Shown piece after piece: positions 37,212 to 63,043 of a stretch of 64,000 nucleotides of DNA. The translations under genes were made by a program, and so were the position numbers. This stretch comes from Mayamaea pseudoterrestris (taxonomy: Eukaryota). The DNA is taken from the NCBI GenBank assembly GCA_027923505.1, contig BROI01000026.1, positions 1 to 64,000 on the forward strand, written 5' to 3'. Below the pieces are notes generated by a model that made no database searches, was not told the origin of the DNA, and worked only from the letters and a program-made list of their open reading frames with translations. How positions within the stretch are numbered: the first letter of the stretch is position 1; every line of letters starts with the position of its first letter.

Positions 37212-39155
37212 TCAAGCAAAGATTATCGTTTCATAGGAACCCTTGTGTCGAGGTCGACAGAAGAAATGCTCCATAAACTCCACCATGAGCAGCGAAGACG
37301 GTATCATGAGCAACGCCACTGCGGCCCAACCATAGGCCCACCCTCCACCCTCCGGATTGCCGTGAGACACTACATGGCCAACAATGTGCCACAATATCGA
37401 CGCGACACCGTATGCAAAACCATCCGTGTAGGCAGAAAAGAGTCCCTTATCCCTACCAAAGGTTGCGCCGACGAGGCTTGGAATGTGGTAAAATTGAACG
37501 GCAATTCCAAAGCCAGCCGCAACAACGGCAAGGGTTTGAAAGACTGTCACCATGCCAGGCTCGTTCAACACTCGCCTCACAGCAGGAATCGCCAACAGCG
37601 CCAAGACATAGCAAGCAACAATCGTGACGAGATACAATTTCGACACGAGCCACTTTCGCTGGCGCTCGGTTCGTCGGGCAAACATGCTGCCCGCCACCAC
37701 GAGACCGACCAAGGTTCCTACCGATAGACAAACGGCCAATCCTGAGGCTCGAGATTCCGATAATGTTGCGGTGCTCGTGTCGGCCAAGTAGGTGCCCAAT
37801 ATGCGTTCCGATGATCGTACGACGGATGACCCAGTGTGCGCCAGCGCAACACTCCAAAATGTGCCACTTCGAAGCAGGTGCTTGACCGAAGGCACGACGT
37901 TGCTGCGGACGATGAACCAAAGTAAGCCGATTGCAAGACTGAGGTTCATGGTTGGTTGGTGCGGCATTTGTTGCTGTTGCTTTGCATACGCGTCGCCGAG
38001 GGCCTGCTCTCGCTGACGTTGCCGACCATGATAGTATTCTGGAAACCACTTGGCGAGTAGCTCCGGATCAACAGGATTCTGCGGCTCATCCTGCGCAATT
38101 GGAGAATCTTGAATGTATAGGTAAACGACCGATGTACCTACAGCTGCCATCCAGGCTCCGATCAGTGCCATGACACGCCAATGTAAATTGTAGCTGCGCA
38201 GCAGCATGGAACTGACTGGAATGCCAACGAGCGAACCCAGTCGCGACGCCAAACTCGTCACGTAGATGGCGCCCTCATAGTTGCTGTTGCTACTTGTAGA
38301 CATACCGTGTACATCGTTTCGAAATGATTGATTGCGACGATTCTGATTGTTTCGTTTGCCAGTCTTTCGCATGTAATGCGTCGCCAAAATGATAATGCAG
38401 CAGGGCCACTGCACGCTGCTTGTAAACTCGACTAGAAAGCAAGCAGCCAATGCTTGCGACGGATTCTGTGCGCATGCCAGTCCCAGCAGTGATACTGCGA
38501 GTAGTGCATTGTAAATGAGCGTTGTCTTGCGGGCACCCACCAAGTCACCGACGGGTCCATTCAAAATTTTACCAAAGGCAGTTCCAAGCACGGCAGCCGA
38601 CGCGGCCTGCGGCGCGAAACTAGTTGATTCGGTTGAGAATTGTGACAAGACTGGAACCAAGGCGACGGGAACGACTGAGGCAAGGCTTGATAGAAAGAGT
38701 GCACCAAAGAGTGAAAGGTTGAGTGCGTTCAAGTGTTTTGTCCACGTAATGCTCCCTGTTGATGTAGATGACAAAAGATAGGAATCGATCAGTATTTCAT
38801 CCAAAACATCTTCGTCATCTCCATCGATATCCGCTTGATTGTCGTCGTCTGAGTCGTAGAGAAAGCCAAAGAAAAAGTGCGAGAGGGATCCCTTGTGCGG
38901 CGCAGCATCGTCATCGTCGTCGTTATTGGTTTCGTCAATCTTGATGCGTCGGCGCGCTCCAGCATCCGAGAATGAAATGAGATCCTCGTCATCGACGTCA
39001 TTGCAATCTGCATAGTCTCGTCTCTGCTGTACGTATCGCTGCCGGGCCGCTGATGATTGCATGTTTAGCGAGGATTGCAAGTGATCATTGTCTTCGCCAT
39101 GATGGTCCCCAAACAAGACATTTCTGGGAGACCAGAGTTGCCTCATCCGCTTCAT
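37212..39155 (-). CDS. Major facilitator superfamily transporter
   Basis: About 12 hydrophobic segments in two halves. MFS motif-A-like GKILNGPVGDLVGARK. Acidic N-terminal extension. Confidence 0.85.
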   Translation of the reverse strand: MKRMRQLWSPRNVLFGDHHGEDNDHLQSSLNMQSSAARQRYVQQRRDYADCNDVDDEDLISFSDAGARRRIKIDETNNDDDDDAAPHKGSLSHFFFGFLYDSDDDNQADIDGDDEDVLDEILIDSYLLSSTSTGSITWTKHLNALNLSLFGALFLSSLASVVPVALVPVLSQFSTESTSFAPQAASAAVLGTAFGKILNGPVGDLVGARKTTLIYNALLAVSLLGLACAQNPSQALAACFLVEFTSSVQWPCCIIILATHYMRKTGKRNNQNRRNQSFRNDVHGMSTSSNSNYEGAIYVTSLASRLGSLVGIPVSSMLLRSYNLHWRVMALIGAWMAAVGTSVVYLYIQDSPIAQDEPQNPVDPELLAKWFPEYYHGRQRQREQALGDAYAKQQQQMPHQPTMNLSLAIGLLWFIVRSNVVPSVKHLLRSGTFWSVALAHTGSSVVRSSERILGTYLADTSTATLSESRASGLAVCLSVGTLVGLVVAGSMFARRTERQRKWLVSKLYLVTIVACYVLALLAIPAVRRVLNEPGMVTVFQTLAVVAAGFGIAVQFYHIPSLVGATFGRDKGLFSAYTDGFAYGVASILWHIVGHVVSHGNPEGGGWAYGWAAVALLMIPSSLLMVEFMEHFFCRPRHKGSYETIIFA

Positions 39156-39354
39156 TGATATTTATCGTTACATTCGTTCTCTAGTCTAGTATATTTCATC
39201 TTCCGTTTATATAATCATTGCGTTGTGCAGCTCCTCATACGATGCATACGACGCTTTTGTCATGGTCAAAATCGACGAGGATGTTTCTTTTTCTGTCCGG
39301 TACTCAAGCACCAATGAGACAAGATGTTTCGATGCGGCTCTTTTTGTTCTATCA

Positions 39355-46251: not shown

Positions 46252-49200
46252 ATGAGGCGCCACATCACACCTTTTACGTTGCTCATCTTGTTGACGCATT
46301 GTTCACTGATCGAGTCGTTTAGTACAGTCTCGTCCTTGTATTTGGATCAAATTGCTGCCATAACACGACGAAGAAATTACGAAGGAGCAACAGCTGCAGC
46401 AGCCGATGCTCGAACGAAACAATCTGAACGAGACGTACGAAACAGCATGGAGGAGACTCAAGCACGATTCGAAACGACAAAGACTGCAACAGATTATGAT
46501 GATGCATCCATGAAGAGACCACCACTGGCTCTATTGTCTACGAAACCACTTGGTCCCCGGCAATACTGGGGTGCAGCAGCACCTCGGCAGTCGACAGCCG
46601 CAACAATGACTACCGACAACGTTGCCGGACGACTGGAAGGCGACCATCCCATGACTCCCCGACGGCAAGAAAAGGAGTTGGCGTCACGATACGATATCTT
46701 CAAGCGGCGCAACGCAATGAAAGCAGCCGGCTATCTTGGTTCCATTTCCAACCATGGGGGCAAGCACTCGCCCAAGGCAATTTATGCGCCAACAATGTTA
46801 GGGAAACGACGCTATCGGATCATTCAATCGAATGGCTTTTTGGATCAACTTGCAGCAACAAACGTAGTGCAGTCGGTGTCAACGAGTGATAACGATGGTG
46901 CAGCAATGGCTGATGTGGAGGCGGAGGCATTGCCACTGCCAGCGACGCGAGTTGCACCCGCAACAATGATTGGCGATGCAGCACCAAACATGCATGTCAG
47001 CGACGAGTTGCATCTGGATATAGACTCAGCAATCAAGTATACACAAGAGGCGCCGTTCAGTGGTACTACAGAGGCAGCTGTTTCGGAACAATGGTCTGCC
47101 GAGACGTTTCCTTGGAACGAGTTTCGAGTCAATCTTCGAGTGCGGCAACCTCCAAGCCAAGCGCCACATGCAACATCAATGGTTGTCAACAAGACGACAG
47201 AAGCAGTCACCTTGCATGATCTCCAGCATTTTCCAACTCGGGTTCGACCATCGCAACGGGTGGTCAGACGAAACATAACTGCGGCGGATGAAAGTGGTGA
47301 AACGGACATTGAGGCAGCAGGAGTAAAACCAGCCAATACCGACTCAGCCGCAACCGTAAAAGCCTTGCCGGAATTTAAAGTCAATGTCCGGACCAGAGCG
47401 TCAACGAGACGAGTCGGAACCACTGACGTGTCCAGTAACAGTGGAGCTGCAATGCTGGCGAGCAAGCAAAACGTGCTGGCCAGAAATGCATCGATGGCTA
47501 TCTTGCCGGCTTTCAAAGTTGGCATCCGCGCCAGACATGTGTATGCGGAACGTGTCAATCAACAGATTATACTTGCTTCAAATGTCACTAACTCTACGGC
47601 GTCGATAACGACGAAACTGATAGAGTTGTCCGCAAGCACGGCCAATATGGCGACGTTCAAAGTCGGTGTCCGCGCCAGAACATCAAAATTGAAGAGTGAC
47701 GAGGCTTTGAATCTTACCGAATCGAATGACGCTGACAGCGCATCAACTCAAAAGACGCGGCAATCAGCGTCTTTGTCGGAGCTCGGCTCATTGTACACGC
47801 TACCTGCATTCAAAGTGGGTCTGCGTGTCAGAGCATCGAAAGCAATCACACATCAATCGAATGCAACGACCGTCTCGCAAGCTCGAGGTAGCACTGTTGA
47901 TGAGAAAGGGCTTTACAACTCATTACGAGAGTTTACGGTCGGAATCAGACAGTTGCGGGTGGTCGACAAGATTGTTCCCGTGGCTCATGATTTGCAGTTG
48001 TCTCATGCTCAAGAAAGTGTCGCGCCATTTAGAGAACGAATCACTAACATTGCTACCGACGCAAACACTCTTGTGAATGTTCCTTCAACTTATATTTCGC
48101 ATGCATCGACGGATGACGACAGAGATGGCAAGGAATCGAATGTTGCAAGCGCAATGCATACCATTCAGCAATCCACGGAAATTGATGACACTCTTGCACA
48201 ATTTGTTGCAAACGCTGCTACGAATCCGTTGCACAATGACCAAACAGTAGATAAACCATTGCCGAACGACTTTGCTTCTCTGAAATTGAGTAGCAATCCT
48301 GTTAAAAGCTTGGAGATGAGGAATGTCGACGTCGCTAATTCGCCAGTGGCGTTTAAGCTTGCTGATGCTGCGTCAGGTTTCGACGTTGGAACGATGCAAC
48401 AAAGGGAGGATGTATCTGACTGTGTTGGTCAACGCGCGACAGACGGCTTAGTTGAGAAAACAATGGACGACGAGGCATTTGGATTGCCCATCCAATCAAT
48501 CTACGACGCAGATAATGACATACGGCAGAGGAATGACGCCGCGAATGGCGTTTATACAGCAAGTCCGAAGATGGCGCATATCACAGCTGAAACACAAGCA
48601 GCCGACACTGCTTTTGATAGCGCATCCAATTCAGATAGTCGTCATCATCAGCTGGCTGAGCATGAGCTCGATAGGCCAACTGGATTTCGTAAGTCAATGG
48701 AAGCACAACCAACAACGTCAGTTGCCATTCCACTTAATTTCAACGTACATGACCATGTTGGATGGAGTTTGCCCGCGCCGCATTTTGATGATCAAGCGAG
48801 CGTACATATTAACGGTTGTCGAGAGGTGATATCTGCAACGCAGAAAATTAAAATCAAACACGAAATTAGTGTTTTCAGTGAGCCGAGAAATGATGATTCA
48901 ATGAAGCCAAAGAATGACGTTTGTTCAATGATGCCATTTAACGAAGCACCGTAACCGTCCTTCCGAACAGCGACAACCAATAAGAACAGACTACTGGACG
49001 AAGAGGGTATAGAGAAAATAAGGGTCATCAATCCGCAGTCGCCAGCAATCCCGGCGACTACGTGTGCCCTTCGCGATTCTTCAGTAAACATACACGATCC
49101 TTTTCCAAGGCGAGCGTATGACGAATGGTCTGACAGTCCAGTCATTCTATCGCGTGCTGATTCTGCATCAAGTTTTTTAGAAACAGTTACCGACGATATT

Positions 49201-50156
49201 TATAACAGTCAAGGTGGAGCAATAAAAAAGGTCGACCGCTTGGTACGTAACTGCTAGATGATAAATAGGAAGAAGATAACAATTTACTTACCTCGTAATA
49301 TTTCACACGACAGATGCAGCTGGAGGAGCGACTACGAAAGCTAGAGCAGCGGGGGTTAGCGGAGTCGTTGATAATACCTCGCGTCTCGTCTCCAAATGGT
49401 ATGCAAATGGCCAGAGGGAGCTTGATTACAGAAAAGATAGCCGGAGCAGCAACACCATCCGTTGCGATTGCTGGTAAGTGTACAAAACTGGAGGTTCATG
49501 GAGGATCCTTGAAGACATGGTCATACGCACATCCTTCTGTCAAGCGCATTCATGTTGTCTTGATGACTGAAGGCCGACCGCTTCATGCAGATGTCGCCTT
49601 GTGGCAGGGACCAAGTAACACGCCATGTAAAATGCGTATCTTTTGCGAAGATGGAGCCGAGCGCCCATTCAGCACCGTAATTGAGACCCCAAACAGTCCA
49701 AACACGATTAGCATTCGCAATTCCGGCAATGTGGAGCTCCCCTTGTCAGCTCAAGTCCTTGCTGAAGACGTAGGTAACCTTTCTTCGCTGCCGTCTTTCC
49801 CAAACTGCGATTTGGAAGTTGATCCAGTAACCATACAAGGTGGAGCGGTCCGCACATATCCTTTTGAAACGATTGTTGAAAGCGTCCAAATTGTTTTACA
49901 GTCCGATGGACGCCCCTTGTACGCCCAGATTGAGATTTTACAAGGACCAAGCAGCAATAAGCAAGTTGTGGATGTTTATACGGAAGATGGAACCACTCGT
50001 CCATTCTTCATGGTGGTAGAGACCCCAGGAAATGGAAATGCGGTTCGTATTGTCAACTCTGGCAGCATCGAATTTCCATTCGTTGCGAGTGTACAACCAT
50101 TTACATTTGGAATACTATCGTCGTCAATTGAACCCGTTATTGGTGGCGACTGGTGA
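46252..50156 (+). CDS. Putative single gene: plastid-type presequence, long low-complexity region with FKVGxRxR repeats and C-terminal PyShell-like double beta domain; one in-frame TAA at 48952-48954; intron 49243-49313
   Basis: ATG 46252 gives MRRHITPFTLLILLTHCSLIES-F. After the TAA the same frame stays open for 96 codons up to the donor GTACGT at 49243. Acceptor CAG at 49311-49313 precedes MQLEERL, matching the intron position before RRLEERL in paralog 60298-61726. Duplicated domain (Q/H)GG..(K/R)T..GRPL.A...QGP..RPF...ETP...E(F/L)P. Confidence 0.7.
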
Positions 50157-50649
50157 AATTTTTTGGTGATTTTAGCTTACATGTTCGCCGATAGCATGGT
50201 CGTCATAATTATTTTGATTGCGAAGCGACGTTGACCAAGGGAAAACTGCAGCTGTCTAAGGTGTTCGGGACGACCGTTCAGATTAGGTCGTGCAGCAACT
50301 GTCATTAAGTTTGCGCATGAGGTTACAGCCTGTAAGGAGAGCCAAGTCGAAAGCCGTAAGCTGTGTCACAGACGAGATGCTCAGGATCCCATGCACCATC
50401 ACTTGCGAGTACTTGAGATCTTTAACATTTCTACGGCTTTGTCGGGGTCACCAACATTGTTGACTCGGCTTTTTCGTGTACGAAGTATGGAAGTACAACT
50501 AGCAATAGAAAAAGCTGTACATAATTGATACAAAAAGAGGATTTGTAAGGATACAACTTAATGCATGTAGAGCCATTTCTTTACGTTTGTAAACACACAA
50601 ACTCCTAAGTCCCATCCACAGAAGCTGGCTCCGAACCAGGCCTAAGACA

Positions 50650-51770
50650 ATACATTGATAGCTGGCAGTTGGCAGGAATTGTTTCATGCTGTTAAAAAAT
50701 GCAATGCAGTCATCACTAGCCAATGCAGTCTCCAATATCTGCCAGTAGGACTGCCAGAATTTTGTGGCCTCAGGCTTCTCCGCAGTAGCTGGCTGCCATG
50801 ACTCACTCCAACAACCAGAAAGGTATACACTGATAGCTGGCAGTTTGCAGGCATTGTTTTATGATGTAGAAAGTGCAATGCATTCATTACAAGCCTATCT
50901 AGTCTCCAAGTTCAAACACAGGGACTGCCTCAATTTGGTGGCCCCAGGCTTGTCCACAGTCGGTGACTGCCATAACCCACTCCAATGACCAGAGAGGTAT
51001 ACATTGACAGCTGGCAGTTGACAGGCATTGTTTCATGATGTAGAAAGTGCAATGCATTCATCACTAGCCCATGCAGTCTCCAAGTTCTGCCAGTGGGACT
51101 GCCAGAATTTGGTGGCCCCAGGCTTGTTTACAGTCAGTGACTGCCACGACCCACTCCAACAGCCCTAGAGGTGTACATTGACAGCTGGCAGTTGACAGGC
51201 ATTGTTTCATGACGAAGAAAGTGCAATGCATTCATCACTAGCCCATGCCGTCTCCAAGTTCTGCCAGTAAGACTGCCAAAATTCTGTGGCCCCAGGCTTG
51301 TCCACAGTTGGTGGCTACCATGACCCTCTCCAACAGCCAGAGACATATACATTGATAGTGGCAGTTGACAGGCATTGTTTCATTATGTAGACAGTGCAAT
51401 GCATTCATCACCAGCCCATGCAGTCTCCAAGTTTACCCACAGGGACTGCCTCAATTTGGTGGCCCCAGTCTTGTTTACAGCTGGTGACAGCCATAACCCA
51501 CTCAAACGGCCAGAGAGGTATAACTTGATAGCTAGCAGCTGACAGGCATTGTTTTATGATGTAGACAGTGCAATGCATTCATCACCAGCCCATGCAGTCT
51601 CCAAGTTTAACCACAGGGACTGCCAGAATTCTGTGGCCCCAGGCTTGTTTACAGTCAGTGACTGCCATAACCCACTCCAATGGCCAGAGAGGTATAACTT
51701 GATAGCTAGCAGTTAACAGGCATTGTTTCATGATGTAGAAAGTGCAATGCATTCATCATTAGCCCATGGG
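50650..51770. repeat. Tandem satellite C, ~174-bp monomer, ~6.5 diverged copies
   Basis: TACATTGA(T/C)AGCTGGCAGTTGACAGGCATTGTTT recurs at ~50650, 50825, 50999, 51173, 51347, 51520 and 51694. Confidence 0.93.
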
Positions 51771-53290
51771 TACCATGCCCTGGCCACCCAACAACCCAAT
51801 GAGTCAGGCAAAACCTGTTCAGGGTATGCCATTGACAGGTGCAGAGTCTCAAAATGGTGCAAAAAGGACTGCCTGGAGGCTGACACCATGGTTACGGCCT
51901 CCACTGTGGGTATGGCCAACACCACAAGTTGTAGTTTCTTACCTGTCAAAAGCCCCATGCCCTGGCCACCCAACAACCCAATGAGTCAGGCAAAACCTGT
52001 CCAGGGTATGCCATTGACAGGTGCAGAGTCTCAAATGGGGCAAAAAGGACTGCCTGGAGGCTGACACCATGGTTACGGCCTCCACTGTGGGTATGGCCAA
52101 CACCACAAGTTTTAGATTCTTACCTATCAAACGCCCCATGCCCTGGCCACCCAAGAACCCAATGAGTCAGGCAAAACCTGTCCAGGGTATGCCATTGGTG
52201 CAGAGTCTCAAATGGTGCAAAAAGGACTGCCTGGAGGCTGACACCATGGTTACGGCCTCCACTGTGGGTATGGCCAACACCACAAATTGTAGATTCTTAC
52301 CTGTCAAACACCCCATGCCCTGGCCACCCAACAACCCAATGAGTCAGGCAAAACCTGTTCAGGGTATGCCATTGACAGGTGCAGAGTCTCAAAATGGTGC
52401 AAAAAACATGGCATCCTCCATGGATAGGCCCGCACCCTTGAGAAACAACCCATACTGCAAGTGCCCCCAGTGGCACAAGTCTCGGTCATGCTTAAGACCA
52501 GTCTGTAGTTGGTGCACGCAGAGCGGCATGTGTGACTGCAAGGAAGAAACGGTAGCCGCCATGAGTGTCACTCCGTGCATTGATCCATCCATGCCAGTTA
52601 ATTCCGGCTTGGCCAAGCATTGGTGCAAGTTTTGAAGTAGCAATCAAATGTGAGGTCCCATGCTGGCCATCTTGTTGTGCGAAAGTAGTGCCAAGCTTTA
52701 GACAGTTCCATGCGACACTTGGCAACACCACAAGTTGTATATTCTGACCTGCCAAACGCCCCATGCCCTGGCCACCCAAATACCCAATGAGTCAGGCAAA
52801 ACATATCCAGGGTATGCCATTGACAGGTGCAGAGTCTCAAATAGTGCATAAAGGACTGCCTGGAGACTGACACCATGGGTACGGCCTCCACTGTGGGTAT
52901 GGCCAACACCACAAGTTGTAGTTTCTTACCTGTCAAACGCCCCATGCCCTGGCCACCCAACAACCCAATGAGTCAGGCAATAACTGTCCAGGGTATGTCA
53001 TTGACAGGTGCAGAGTCTCAAATGGTGCAAAAAGGACTGCCTGGAGGCTGACACCATGGGTAGGGTCTCAACAGTGGGAATGGCCAACACCACACGTTTT
53101 AGATTCTTACCTGTCAAACGCCCCATGCCCTGGCCACCCAAATACCCAATGATTCAGACAAAACATGTCCAGGGTGTGCCATCTACAGGTGCAAAATCTC
53201 AAATGGTGCAAAAAGGACTGCCTGGAGGCTGACACCATGGGTGCGGCCTGCACTGTGGGTATGGCCAACACCGCAAGTGTTAGATTATTA
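51771..53290. repeat. Tandem satellite D, ~181-bp monomer, ~6.5 copies interrupted by a ~320-bp non-repeat insert
   Basis: CCATGCCCTGGCCACCCAA at 51773, 51955, 52136, 52313, 52761, 52942 and 53123. Confidence 0.95.
52401..52724 (-). pseudogene. PRIM2: Decayed fragment of DNA primase large subunit (start of the Fe-S C-terminal domain)
   Basis: The minus strand reads AKCRMELSKA, then after frameshifts LLQNLHQCL...SLQSHMPLCVHQLQTGLKHDRDLCHWGHLQYGLFLKGAGLSMEDAMFF. This matches the primase p58 consensus FPxCMRxL...LRHxGRxQYGLFLKGxGLxxExAxxF. Confidence 0.88.
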
Positions 53291-53611
53291 CATTCATTAT
53301 AAAGTGCGAATTGAGAGCAGAAAGGTCAAAGACACGCGCATTGGAAGTTGAAAGCATCCCCTCATGCTAAGTTGTAGCGGTATGACTTAACTATCTGCTT
53401 CTCGCTGCACACGGACGACTGACAAAGGCGGACAACGACGAAAAATTATTGGTAGTGAATGCTATGTTATATGCTACCTACACAGGTCACATAGTTGCCA
53501 ATAATTATAAGCCATCCTCAGTGTTCATTCCTCACTCTGGGCGTCGTCGCTCGCAGCCCCTCCGGAAGCTACAACCTCCAGCGATTTAATGACGCCTTCC
53601 GCAATTTCCTT

Positions 53612-59008: not shown

Positions 59009-59382
59009 GGAGCTAACGTCGCTTCGCTTTGAAAAAAGTGATAGATTCAGGAATGTTTTACAAGTTGGAAGTGATGGCAAAAGATCGAATCGAAACGAAA
59101 CGGATCCTGAATCCATTCAATACATTCAAACCCAACGCGAGGCGAGAAAAATGACTGTGACTTTTTGGCGTCGTACCGGTTATGTTACGCTCGTTTCATC
59201 GCCATGGAGAATGAAGACGCCAAATAAATAGAAAAGACAATATGACTGACTGTGAATCAAGTAGTAAATCCATCGCTGACCAAAACTTTGTGACTATCGA
59301 CGTGTGACCCGATTGATTGGAGGTTTTCTTGCTTACTCTCGGCTCTCGACTCGTCCGCAGTCAAAACCGCCGGCTACATTGC

Positions 59383-60180
59383 ATGCCTCGAGAGCAACAA
59401 AACGTTGTCTCATATGACATGGACCAGCTATTACTCAACTATCATGACGCTTGCATCTATGGACGAGACCTTGAGCTATTGCGGGACCCAGCTGGATGGT
59501 TGAATGGCGATGTGATTCACTTTTATGGCAAGCGACTCGAGCAGGATCATTCCAGTATCTTGTTCTTGGACCCAGCCGTCGTTTCCTTCTTCATGCATCA
59601 GCTCGATGACGATCCGGACGACTTTCAGGAGTTTGCGCAAACGACGAAAATGAGTCTACAGAACAAACGGCTTGCCTTTATTCCAGTCAATAATGTACTC
59701 GGGACTCTAAACTGGATGCTGCCTCACCAGGGAACCCATTGGAGCCTGGTACTTTACATTGCTAGTGACTCTGACGGAGCCAAAGATGCTTCATACGGAT
59801 TTTGGCACGTTGACTCGATTCAACATAGTTCCAATCAAGAAGCTGCAGAAAGAGTCGCGCGCAGATGGAGCAGCATCCTTCGAGCGACTGCAAATAATGA
59901 TGACGCGCGGCAACGAGAGCAAGCAACGACTGACACGACAAAACTACATCACGTTGCAAACGTTCCGCAGCAGACAAACGGTCACGACTGCGGCATGCAC
60001 GTCTTGCTGGCGGCGCAAGTCATTTGTGAGTTTGAGAAGCGAGCCGAGAGGTATCGCAGTTCACAGATTGGTCCAGCCATGGAGGCTCATCTTCAATGCG
60101 AGTCGATTCTACAAATGCGACAACGAATCTCTAATGATATACAAGCGCTCATGATGGAAAATGACCAAGTAGGCGAGTAG
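59383..60180 (+). CDS. SENP8: Ulp1/C48 cysteine protease, SENP8/NEDP1 (deneddylase)-like
   Basis: LLNYHDACIY..DL, WLN.DVI.FY, GTHWSL, HVDS and PQQTNGHDCG give the His-Asp-Cys triad. The start could alternatively be at 59419. Confidence 0.82.
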   Translation: MPREQQNVVSYDMDQLLLNYHDACIYGRDLELLRDPAGWLNGDVIHFYGKRLEQDHSSILFLDPAVVSFFMHQLDDDPDDFQEFAQTTKMSLQNKRLAFIPVNNVLGTLNWMLPHQGTHWSLVLYIASDSDGAKDASYGFWHVDSIQHSSNQEAAERVARRWSSILRATANNDDARQREQATTDTTKLHHVANVPQQTNGHDCGMHVLLAAQVICEFEKRAERYRSSQIGPAMEAHLQCESILQMRQRISNDIQALMMENDQVGE

Positions 60181-60297: not shown

Positions 60298-61726
60298 TTA
60301 CCACTGCTTGACAAAGCCATCGTCACCTCCAATCACTGGCTCGGTGGGCGAGTAGCCCGACGCTCCCACCACAAACGGTTCCACCCAAGCCGTCAATGGA
60401 AACTCCACCGTCGCACTGTTCACGACGCGCACAACGTTACCACTGCCAGGCGTCTCAATCACCAAGTAGCATGGTCGGTCCATGCCATCCTCCGTGTACA
60501 CTTCCATGACTTGCTTGTTGTTGTTAGGGCCTTGCAGCAACTCGATGCGAGCATTCAACGGACGACCATCCGTCGTGAGCAAAATCTGAACACTGTCGAC
60601 CGACGGATCAAACGGATACGTCTTGAGCGCTCCACCTTGAATCGTCTGCGGCGGTCCCTGGAGCGGATTGGATCGCGCCGATGGAACGTCCGACTCTTCA
60701 TCCGTCTCCGCCAGTACGTGCGCCGCGAGTGGAAACTCCAACTGGCCCGTGTTGCGAATCTGAATCGTGTTGGGGCTGCGAGGAGTCTCCATGACGGCCG
60801 TGAATGGACGAACGGCGCCATCTTCCACGTAGACGCGCATCTGAAAGTGAGGAAAAAGGAGTGAAGTAGAATGAGAATGCTGAATGAAAATGACCATGCG
60901 CGAGAGAGATGATGCAACCAAAGGTTCATGTGTTTTTGATCGTCACTCTCAACACTTTCATACGCAACTTCCCCAAACTGATCACTCATCGTACCTTGTG
61001 CGGCGTATTATCTGGTCCCTGCCAAAGACTAATATCGGCATCAAGTGGTCGTCCATCCGTTTTCAGGCAAACATGAATGCGCGTAATGGATGGACTCGCA
61101 AAGGACCATGTTTTGAGCGAGCCTCCCTGCACTAGTAGCTTGGGTGACTTTGTCGCAATCATGTTGGAGGGATTCTGTGGCTCGCGCGAGGAACTAACGT
61201 TAATGGCGTTGGAGCCGCGGTCACTGCCGCGACTGCTGCTGCCAGGCAACTGCTGGGTTTTGGGGCTACTGCCCATTTTGGCATTTTCCTGCTCGAGCTG
61301 GTTCAAGCGTTCCTCCAAGCGGCGCTGTGCAAAGGAAATTGTAGAAGTGATGAATAGGAGATGATTGTGAGAAGAGACGTCGAGTATAAGATGAAAGATT
61401 ACAATCAAGCATCGTATCGAAGAATAGATTCGCCAGTCATCCTCAAAAGCTGTCACATCACATTCTATATACAGTAATACACTCACAGTCCTATCTTCAT
61501 CCGCTCGTCTCGCAAAAAAGTCCTTTGGATTCTTTGGCTGCTGCTGGTCGTCACTGTTTTGCTGCGGCGTGTTTCCCAAATCTTCCCCTCCGAGGCTGGA
61601 CAAGTAGGACCGCAGCTGCTGGTGGCAGTGCTTGGTCGGCTGCTGCTGATGCGTAATCATGAATGCGCTTGCTGACGACGATGCCGTCAAAACGCACAAG
61701 AGGGAGAGTTTCGTAAACGTCTTCAT
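60298..61726 (-). CDS. PyShell-like pyrenoid shell protein, 370 aa; exons 61726-61487, 61324-60995 and 60840-60298
   Basis: Signal peptide with ASA-F cleavage motif. Two GT..AG introns keep the frame. Tandem duplicated domain VQGGSLKTWS..GRPLDADI.LWQGPDNTP.KMRVYVEDG..RPF..V.ETP..EFPL / IQGGALKTYPFD..GRPLNARIELLQGPNNNKQV.E.YTEDG..RP...IETPGSGNVVR.VN...EFPL. The family name is recalled, not searched. Confidence 0.78.
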
Positions 61727-62071: not shown

Positions 62072-62236
62072 CCTCTAAGTAAGCCTTTTTGATTCGTCAT
62101 GACGCGAGATCTTGCGGCTCGCGAGGATGCGCATGGATGCCATGATCATCCCATTTTGGCCATGAGATTGACGAGCAAGAACAAGTCTTCTTCCTTAGCA
62201 ACTACTTGTATTACTGTTACTCTCTTTGTTACTATC

Positions 62237-63043
62237 ATGGCATCCCTTATCCAAGCAACGACAGCCTCCTCCAGTTTCCACCGCGAGCATACGACTCGCC
62301 CCATGGTGACTGGCACCAGCGTCGTTGGCTTGGTGTACAACGGCGGCGTCTTGCTCGCCGCCGACACGCTGCTGAGCTACGGAAGCATGGCCAAGAGTCA
62401 GAACGCCGAGCGCATCAAGGCCATTGGAAACAGTTTCGTTGTGGGAGCGTCGGGAGAATATTCCGATTACATGAAACTCTTGCGCGTCTTGGAAGACAAG
62501 CACTTGAGTGAGACGCGGACTGGCATCATTGAGGACGGTCAAACCGAAGTCACGGCGGAAAGTACATGGAACTATTTGCGCATGTTATTTTACAGCAAGC
62601 GCAACAAGATGAATCCATACTGGAACGAAGTGCTGGTCGCTGGCTTTGGTAACGTCAAGGATGCTGCTGGCGCGACGACGGGCGGTGACGGCGAAACGTC
62701 CAAACCCTTTTTAGGCATGGTGGACAAGATTGGAACGACGGTATCCGGAAACACGCTGGCGACTGGATTCGGCGCGTGGCTGGCGCTGCCGCTGCTGCGC
62801 GAAAAGTGGAGACCCGACTTGACGGAAGGTGAAGCCCGGGCGCTGCTGGAGGATTGCATGCGCGTCTTGTTTCTGAGAGACTGTCGGGCCAGTCCGCGCA
62901 TTCAGCTGGCCAAGGTGACGCGAGACGTCACCACTGGCAGTGTCGTGACGGCGGTTTCGGATCCGTACATTCTGGAGACGCAGTGGGATTCGGCGGAGTT
63001 TATGCGGCCCGTGGCTGGCTTGGAGGGTGATGGTGGTTGGTAA
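62237..63043 (+). CDS. PSMB4: Proteasome subunit beta type-4 (beta7/PRE4)
   Basis: T..PMVTGTSVVG..Y.GGV.LAADTL.SYGSMA, GASGEYSD, Y.KRNKMNPYWN, ATGFG..LALPLLR and LE.CMRVLF.RD.R. Confidence 0.95.
   Translation: MASLIQATTASSSFHREHTTRPMVTGTSVVGLVYNGGVLLAADTLLSYGSMAKSQNAERIKAIGNSFVVGASGEYSDYMKLLRVLEDKHLSETRTGIIEDGQTEVTAESTWNYLRMLFYSKRNKMNPYWNEVLVAGFGNVKDAAGATTGGDGETSKPFLGMVDKIGTTVSGNTLATGFGAWLALPLLREKWRPDLTEGEARALLEDCMRVLFLRDCRASPRIQLAKVTRDVTTGSVVTAVSDPYILETQWDSAEFMRPVAGLEGDGGW

Follow-up and report, generated by a model that had tools for sequence, protein, structure and literature searches.

The closest described counterpart of the gene discussed here is TpPyShell1 (Shell1) from the diatom Thalassiosira pseudonana (structure 8wqp), which combines a plastid signal on the first exon with a short helix-like stretch and a C-terminal domain of 205 residues that consists of two related halves. 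According to the available text of the preprint by Shimakawa et al., its N-terminal part has 68 disordered residues. For Shell4, another T. pseudonana member of the family, a role in linking shell and Rubisco matrix has been proposed, and the attachment of the diatom shell to this matrix has been raised as an open question, along with Shell4 and DPC3, in the accessible part of a preprint by Nam et al. (10.1101/2023.10.26.564148); the accessible text of a 2026 review also lists open questions on PyShell function (PMC13655443). In a 64-kb stretch of Mayamaea pseudoterrestris DNA (the window, whose positions serve as coordinates throughout), the plus-strand segment 46252..50156 has the same features as TpPyShell1, namely, the whole-length C-terminal domain with its related halves, the helix-like stretch that precedes it, and a predicted plastid signal on the first exon, but ∼880 residues lie between the signal and the domain. 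It also differs from TpPyShell1 in having repeated basic motifs and an internal candidate intron that bears a stop codon. That this locus holds a real fused giant PyShell gene is very probable, whatever the fate of that stop. The fuller reading, a single gene for a long-form PyShell protein composed of a signal peptide, a low-complexity tether of ∼880 residues, and a C-terminal PyShell domain, with the stop lying in an in-frame intron, appears modestly probable.

The shell domain is encoded in the last exon (exon 3, 49314..50156; 280 amino acids [aa]), downstream of a short LEERLRKLEQ stretch. The translated exon matched the Pfam profile PF25192 (DiatomPyrShell) with an E value of 3e-78 and a score of 262.4 bits (cut-off, 27); the match spans residues 58 to 262, i.e., nucleotides (nt) 49485-50099, and positions 6 to 209 of the 209-position profile. 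For the solved T. pseudonana PyShell chain, 8wqp_A, the E value was 1.2e-73. What the earlier note had called a PyShell-like domain is, judging from these two matches, a genuine PyShell domain, matched by a protein of solved structure. Its second half could be aligned with the first half of P0008, the sister protein from another organism (see below), at 42% identity (E value of 2e-21), which reveals the two related halves, CR1 and CR2. Of the 55 columns with ≥85% conservation in the family, the domain keeps 51 (family median, 52; minimum, 43). It keeps all 12 invariant columns of the alignment (A1), and its end branch on the domain tree is of ordinary length (0.38 versus a median of 0.4). Variation was followed in contigs from four sequencing runs, X1, X2, X4, and X5, which are DNA-like, without splice joints; statements on variants refer to the 40 that are listed, of a total of 263, in the variant table across runs. 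Four of the five such variants in exon 3 fall on third codon positions, and the sole insertion is 3 nt long. Given the retained columns, the ordinary end branch, and the predominance of third-position variants, the shell domain is, as far as sequence can tell, intact and under constraint.

Upstream of this exon, reading-frame analysis found an ATG at 46252 followed by 900 open codons, with the first stop being the TAA at 48952-48954. Past the TAA, the same frame stays open for another 96 codons (48955-49242) up to the GT at 49243, as had been noticed earlier and was confirmed in the sequence; it contains no Met and is still stop-free to 49257. The TAA aside, the frame is uninterrupted over 997 codons. 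In exon 1, the codon log-odds are +0.10 to +0.14 and there are no in-frame stops (26 and 46 in the remaining frames). The tether-shell fusion is not new: it is present in a public gene model from M. pseudoterrestris, the 1183-aa “hypothetical protein” GKZ00330.1 (MPSEU_000985900), which is 100% identical to the window and carries PF25192. Compared with the window, this model consists of exon 1 (46252..48688; 812 codons and 1 base, covering the predicted signal peptide, a YLDQI motif, and the tether), exon 2 (48971..49242; ∼91 residues with no in-frame Met, a codon log-odds of +0.141, and no stops), and exon 3, which, when joined, give 1183 codons in a script recount. When the 900-aa frame was used as query in a protein search, the one match among 7998 candidates was GKZ00330.1 itself, and neither the 280-aa nor the 900-aa product was found as a separate protein in a collection of 15 billion sequences. 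The gene models of the genome paper were, according to its available text, produced by funannotate with RNA sequencing reads (PMC9724779); the locus tags of the gene had no match in those supplement files of that paper that were searched.

The joining of the 46252 frame to exon 3 can be judged from the intron between them. The last codon before it, TTG, ends at 49242, and exon 3 opens with the ATG at 49314, which results in a phase-0 join across a 71-nt intron (49243..49313, GTACGT...CAG) that contains 1, 3, and 3 stops in the three frames. A paralogous short PyShell gene on the minus strand of the same window (60298..61726; three exons, 370 aa; two phase-0 introns, of 162 and 154 nt), whose domain is 61% identical to that of the long gene, has an 80-codon first exon with a signal peptide, ...SSSASA|F, followed by the 162-nt intron that ends two codons before LEERL. 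Since the 49243 intron agrees in place and phase with this first intron of the paralog, a coding exon in the 46252 frame can be taken to end at 49242. The same intron position is seen in P0160, a fuller model of the sister P0008 (1071 versus 1040 aa) that comes from an uninterrupted 1071-codon open reading frame (ORF) on a 100-kb contig. P0160 consists of a signal peptide, ...SSSA|F, then NYLDKL, a tether of ∼780 residues that is rich in Ser, Thr, and Ala and contains FKPFVKR/FRPFVKR, then SLLEKRIKELEE, and the PyShell domain; immediately before SLLEKRIKELEE there is a 30-codon stretch that starts with VS, ends with Q, and resembles an unspliced phase-0 intron at the position of the 49243 intron.

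The ASAFAP-type plastid signal is the motif rule in diatoms, and the mode of protein import into diatom plastids means that a PyShell protein without such a signal could not reach the pyrenoid. The ORF at 49314 begins MQLEERLRKLEQRG and has no hydrophobic stretch, in agreement with the earlier statement that it has no targeting peptide of its own. The three plus-strand ATGs in the 360-nt gap between the TAA and 49314 open frames of just 20, 2, and 28 residues, none of them signal-peptide-like or in frame with PyShell. A candidate bipartite plastid presequence (a signal peptide with an aromatic residue at +1) is present only with the exon at 46252 joined: judged by eye and by hydropathy, it comprises the predicted signal peptide MRRHITPFTLLILLTHCSLIES (46252..46317) with F at +1, whose 9-residue hydropathy maximum is 2.24, versus 2.47 for the signal peptide of the paralog. 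Because PyShell needs a plastid signal and MRRHITPFTLLILLTHCSLIES|F is the only one available, the 46252 exon is likely joined to the PyShell exon, and we infer that the long-form protein is targeted to the plastid by this sequence. ATG 49314 is the first codon of its exon, which would also suit a two-gene layout, where the tether gene stops at the TAA and a second gene, with its own promoter, encodes PyShell from Met 49314. Such a layout is highly improbable: the gap offers no start with a signal peptide, the ATG directly follows an AG at a conserved intron position, and the coding-like stretch of 96 codons beyond the TAA is in phase. Thus, the fusion of the PyShell domain to the upstream frame of ∼900 codons, as proposed in the earlier note along with the in-phase splice before LEERL, is borne out by the intron position (phase 0 in both paralogs), by the lack of any other targeting exon in the gap, and by the sister gene, and is displayed by GKZ00330.1.

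The TAA itself lies 16 nt before an acceptor AG (48969-48970) and, in the public model, is part of a 282-nt phase-1 intron (48689..48970, GTAAGT...CAG). The earlier note, which explained the stop by a nonsense allele, a sequencing error, or a read-through or short-intron switch, had missed this intron; from that list, the short-intron switch is the option favored by the splice signals. Among the phase-compatible donors of the ORF, GTAAGT at 48689 ranks first, with a score of 6.0 (4.3 for the runner-up), and the acceptor at 48970 has a pyrimidine-rich tract followed by CAG. An alternative in-phase donor, GTGAGC at 48878, would produce a 93-nt in-frame intron and a 1246-aa protein. Both introns are multiples of 3, and both gene models stay in frame. 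In a control, where codons of nine other long ORFs of the window were treated as stops, equally good in-frame bridging was found in 30 of 4188 cases (0.7%), or in 253 of 4188 (6%) with a laxer donor; at other codons of the 46252 ORF, there were no such cases among 661.

The sequence on either side of the TAA resembles coding sequence. Inside the candidate intron, the 87 codons that precede the TAA contain no in-frame stops (3 and 13 in the other frames) and have a log-odds of +0.125; for the 96 codons that follow it, the log-odds is +0.117, again with no in-frame stops. Among 88-codon windows, both marks were reached by 0.08% of 2435 and 0.8% of 3744 non-coding controls and by 71% of 487 coding ones. 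Good splice signals combined with a coding-like interior make a young or alternative intron cut from coding sequence, an “exitron,” the simplest reading. Exitrons, found in plants and animals, are alternatively spliced introns located inside coding exons. The candidate intron is similar to them in its location inside a coding exon, a length that is a multiple of 3, canonical GT-AG ends, and the coding potential within; it differs from them in that its retained form ends at a stop and that it is known here from genomic sequence alone. The TAA at 48952 would then be located within an in-frame GT-AG intron with the donor at 48689 or 48878 and the acceptor at 48970, which would have been carved from recently coding sequence. 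Its removal would yield a shell-anchored protein of 1183 (or 1246) aa, whereas its retention would yield a 900-aa tether without the shell domain. Removal of the TAA by splicing is the best single reading of this site, and we lean toward it by a small measure; a TAA inside a coding-like, well-signalled intron might represent a diatom case of coding sequence turning into intron.

A single base change would turn the TAA into a sense codon, and the frame is otherwise open for 997 codons, so two more explanations have to be weighed: an assembly or base-calling error at 48952, with a sense codon in reality, and read-through of the TAA during translation. Both are improbable. Of all stop codons, TAA terminates translation most efficiently, and its surroundings offer no evident read-through context. 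As for an error, X1 and X2 cover the site, and no full-depth difference from the window between 47988 and 49144 is found in them among the variants listed, which is a weak argument against it.

Several observations weigh against the removal of the TAA by splicing and the long-form protein that would result from it. The donor score is an ad hoc one, from a simple in-house scheme, and the predicted splicing from 48689 or 48878 to 48970 may be a device of the gene predictor. The coding-like interior of the candidate intron is unlike that of an old constitutive intron. No variants at 48952-48954 are among those listed, which weighs neither way on whether the TAA is heterozygous. A net 5-nt deletion at 48312-48317 is seen at about half depth (66.8/141.3 in X1 and 18.2/40.5 in X2); it would stop the frame after 693 codons and would not be removed with the candidate intron, and no upstream donor of good score in the right phase could be found that would splice out both lesions. 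More than one haplotype therefore has a lesion that breaks the frame between repeat zone and shell exon, an observation that would suit decay as well. Finally, the tether had no relatives beyond GKZ00330.1 in the protein search and no usable match in the ESM Atlas, and its comparison with the tether of the sister P0008 gave 27.3 bits, a score no higher than expected from shuffled sequences (median, 24.6; 95th percentile, 32).

Some of these observations are in line with a decaying or polymorphic long-form gene, in which the TAA is a nonsense allele and the public intron is the predictor's bridge. Such a gene would produce just the 900-aa tether, or have its mRNA degraded, and no shell domain would be made. 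On both sides of the TAA the sequence is coding-like in one frame, as it would be after a recent point mutation; the 5-nt deletion represents a second frame-breaking lesion, at about half depth in X1 and X2; and the 3' third of the tether has no motif. Nevertheless, random codons are rarely flanked by splice signals as good as those of the TAA (the above 0.7%), the shell domain bears no sign of relaxed constraint, and the downstream 71-nt intron retains a good donor and a good acceptor, which makes decay a possible but doubtful explanation. Two single-base deletions, at 48760 and 48996, in a low-depth X4 contig (depth of 4) were missing from run X2 of the same sample and were treated as errors. 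The listed indels of the repeat zone in X1 and X2 are of +6 and +3 nt.

If the locus encoded two products with a shared targeting exon, this would account for the toleration of the TAA as well as the 5-nt deletion. Splicing from a phase-0 donor at 46435 (GTACGA) to 49314 would produce a PyShell protein of 341 aa, near the median length of 360 aa for 159 family proteins, and the long frame would then be an alternative, a free repeat protein that ends at whichever stop a given allele has. The donor is in the right phase and of the type that is used by intron 2 of the paralog. However, such donors are expected by chance, at an estimated ∼3 per 1024 nt (only 4 strong ones are found in 3 kb), this one is not used in the public model, and there would be no purpose in a conserved donor at 49243 or in keeping the segment 48971-49242 open and coding-like. 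Two such products are therefore unlikely, and a single long-form gene with a spliced-out TAA remains our preferred reading.

In the predicted long-form protein, the most prominent feature of the tether is the motif F-[KRT]-V-[GN]-[IVL]-R-x-R (FKVGxRxR for short), which occurs six times in the repeat zone (47122..47955), at residues 291, 375, 421, 469, 520, and 561 (nt 47122, 47374, 47512, 47656, 47809, and 47932), with spacings of 84, 46, 48, 51, and 41 residues; four of the six copies are preceded by LP or L-x. Tandem Repeats Finder produced no rows for the tether DNA. The tether, described earlier as repeat-bearing, is thus repetitive at the protein level but not at the DNA level, and the absence of DNA-level repeats suggests that the motif has been kept while the spacers drifted. 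The zone 281-600 is basic (isoelectric point of 10.4), the zone 601-812 is acidic (4.4), and disorder-promoting residues make up ∼73% of the tether (71-75%). The tether has no match in Pfam, a 181-aa stretch spanning the TAA (with the stop read as X) matched 0 of 24 candidates, and a literature search with the FKVGxRxR motif strings returned no relevant paper. The suggestion that the tether might anchor the shell to membranes is not supported: residues 1-903 contain no second hydrophobic segment, and their best 19-residue hydropathy, 1.53, is that of the signal peptide (at residue 8). A motif of a different type, [YF]L[DG][SQ][LI], is found at tether residues 30, 161, and 196.

Repetitive proteins that link shell and Rubisco cargo are known from carboxysomes, as exemplified by CsoS2 and CcmM. 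These bacterial proteins are functional analogs of the tether only; they are unrelated to it in sequence, and CsoS2 is a separate polypeptide that is not fused to the shell. Similar in build are the Rubisco linkers EPYC1, CsLinker, and PYCO1, which, in the available text of the 2026 review (PMC13655443), share with the tether a stickers-and-spacers layout, five or six short motifs, a low-complexity chain, and a basic repeat zone. Judged by eye, they show no sequence likeness to the tether, in which neither KWSPRGGS and GTGYNP nor the published PYCO1 motifs are seen; the tether is covalently joined to a shell domain. With its six motifs spaced 41-84 residues apart in a low-complexity chain, the tether has a sticker-type build, and by analogy it might bind Rubisco. 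The shell-to-matrix role proposed for Shell4 is the one envisaged here for the tether. The PyShell domain would sit in the shell lattice, and the tether, a multivalent arm by virtue of its six basic motifs, would bind some partner in the pyrenoid, be it the Rubisco matrix or a neighbouring shell. Such a role of a shell-anchored multivalent linker is a reasoned guess; if true, a shell subunit equipped with a multivalent arm would directly qualify as a candidate shell-matrix adaptor. A predicted complex of tether residues 405-535 with two copies of the PyShell domain had a score of 0.00, which weighs neither way on binding.

A further-reaching proposal would treat the stop-bearing intron as a regulated switch. 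Its retention would release a free 900-aa sticker protein and its splicing would anchor the stickers to the shell, so that the locus would set how firmly the Rubisco matrix, or neighbouring sheets, are stitched to the shell. FKVGxRxR would then be a new pyrenoid sticker, and long PyShells could be the missing shell-matrix adaptors of red-plastid algae. Taken as a whole, this proposal is speculative and rather unlikely.

Described shell proteins are mostly small, as stated in the earlier note and in agreement with the available text of Nam et al., but long forms are not rare in the databases. A family search yielded 1066 representatives at an E value of ≤0.001; among the 150 best of these, 17 are at least 600 aa long and 8 are at least 800 aa long, mostly with the domain at the C terminus. 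Some of the long models (e.g., P0003, P0004, and P0020) may be prediction artefacts or tandem domains. Besides P0160/P0008, the long forms include P0005, P0090/P0101, and P0006/P0009, all of which resemble the protein discussed here in having the C-terminal domain behind an extension of 600-1000 residues, often with short repeated motifs; their extensions are unrelated to its tether in sequence, and an in-frame stop is found only in this gene. P0005 is a second long PyShell gene of Mayamaea (GKZ01052.1, 907 aa); it starts like the gene discussed here, with a signal peptide and F (...SEA|FGSYLDQL), and has no FKVG motifs. P0006, a complete MMETSP transcript of 1228 aa, has a coiled-coil arm, as does P0009, whereas P0090 and P0101 carry 6 and 8 GYLDSL/GYLGSL motifs, respectively. 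The long arms are unrelated in sequence to each other as well.

On the FastTree tree of 144 PyShell domains (15 of the 159 rows, which had no near-complete domain, were left out), the domain discussed here pairs with P0008 (local support of 88) inside a group of seven (support of 97) that also includes the paralog and P0005. With 20 long rows, the “long” label requires 16 changes on this tree, of which well-supported branches force at least 5. The available text of the two 2023-24 preprints (Shimakawa et al.; Nam et al., 10.1101/2023.10.26.564148) and of the 2026 review (PMC13655443) contains no description of long-form PyShells, with the preprint supplements lying outside this search; the class of long-form PyShells appears to be unstudied.

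The [YF]L[DG][SQ][LI] motif recurs in the long arms of P0090, P0101, and P0007, in up to 8 copies, and directly follows the signal peptide in P0002 (the gene discussed here), P0005, and P0160. A looser pattern, [YF]L[DGSN][SQGT][LI], was considered as a family-wide N-terminal feature and rejected: it was present in 6 of 84 N-terminal parts and in 1 of 84 shuffled ones and is confined to a subset. Also rejected was a metagenome locus from the domain scan, a single locus with 50% identity that is not an ortholog.

The sequencing runs revealed additional variation along the locus. In the segment 46980-47766, over the repeat zone, one contig from X1 and X2 has 39 differences from the window, and the other has 70 differences and 9 inserted bases; the assembled sequence of this zone may be a mosaic of two haplotypes. 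All four runs have contigs that match, at ≥90%, only the central part of the PyShell exon (49696-50098) and diverge on both sides of it, suggesting an allele that has diverged strongly or an additional copy of recent origin. Directly after the stop codon of the gene, positions 50160/50287 and 50185/50299 are joined on opposite strands in contigs from X1, X2, and X5, suggesting a small inversion or a hairpin-flanked segment in other haplotypes. Upstream of the gene, contigs from X1, X2, and X4 all depart from the window beyond ∼45813 with the same loose end, a structural difference located ∼440 nt before the ATG.

The neighbouring ORFs have no obvious functional link to the pyrenoid. Pfam matches were found for a Ulp1 protease of the C48 family (59317-60180, plus strand; E value of 3e-11), a proteasome subunit (62093-63040, plus strand; 2e-27), and a major facilitator superfamily transporter (37215-39161, minus strand; 8e-18), and no Pfam matches were found in four other long ORFs of the window. 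Downstream of the gene there are three tandem arrays, a 174-nt unit repeated 6.4 times (50650-51768) and a 181-nt unit repeated 3.5 times (51773-52405) and 3.1 times (52723-53291); the first of these arrays is spanned by open frames on the minus strand.

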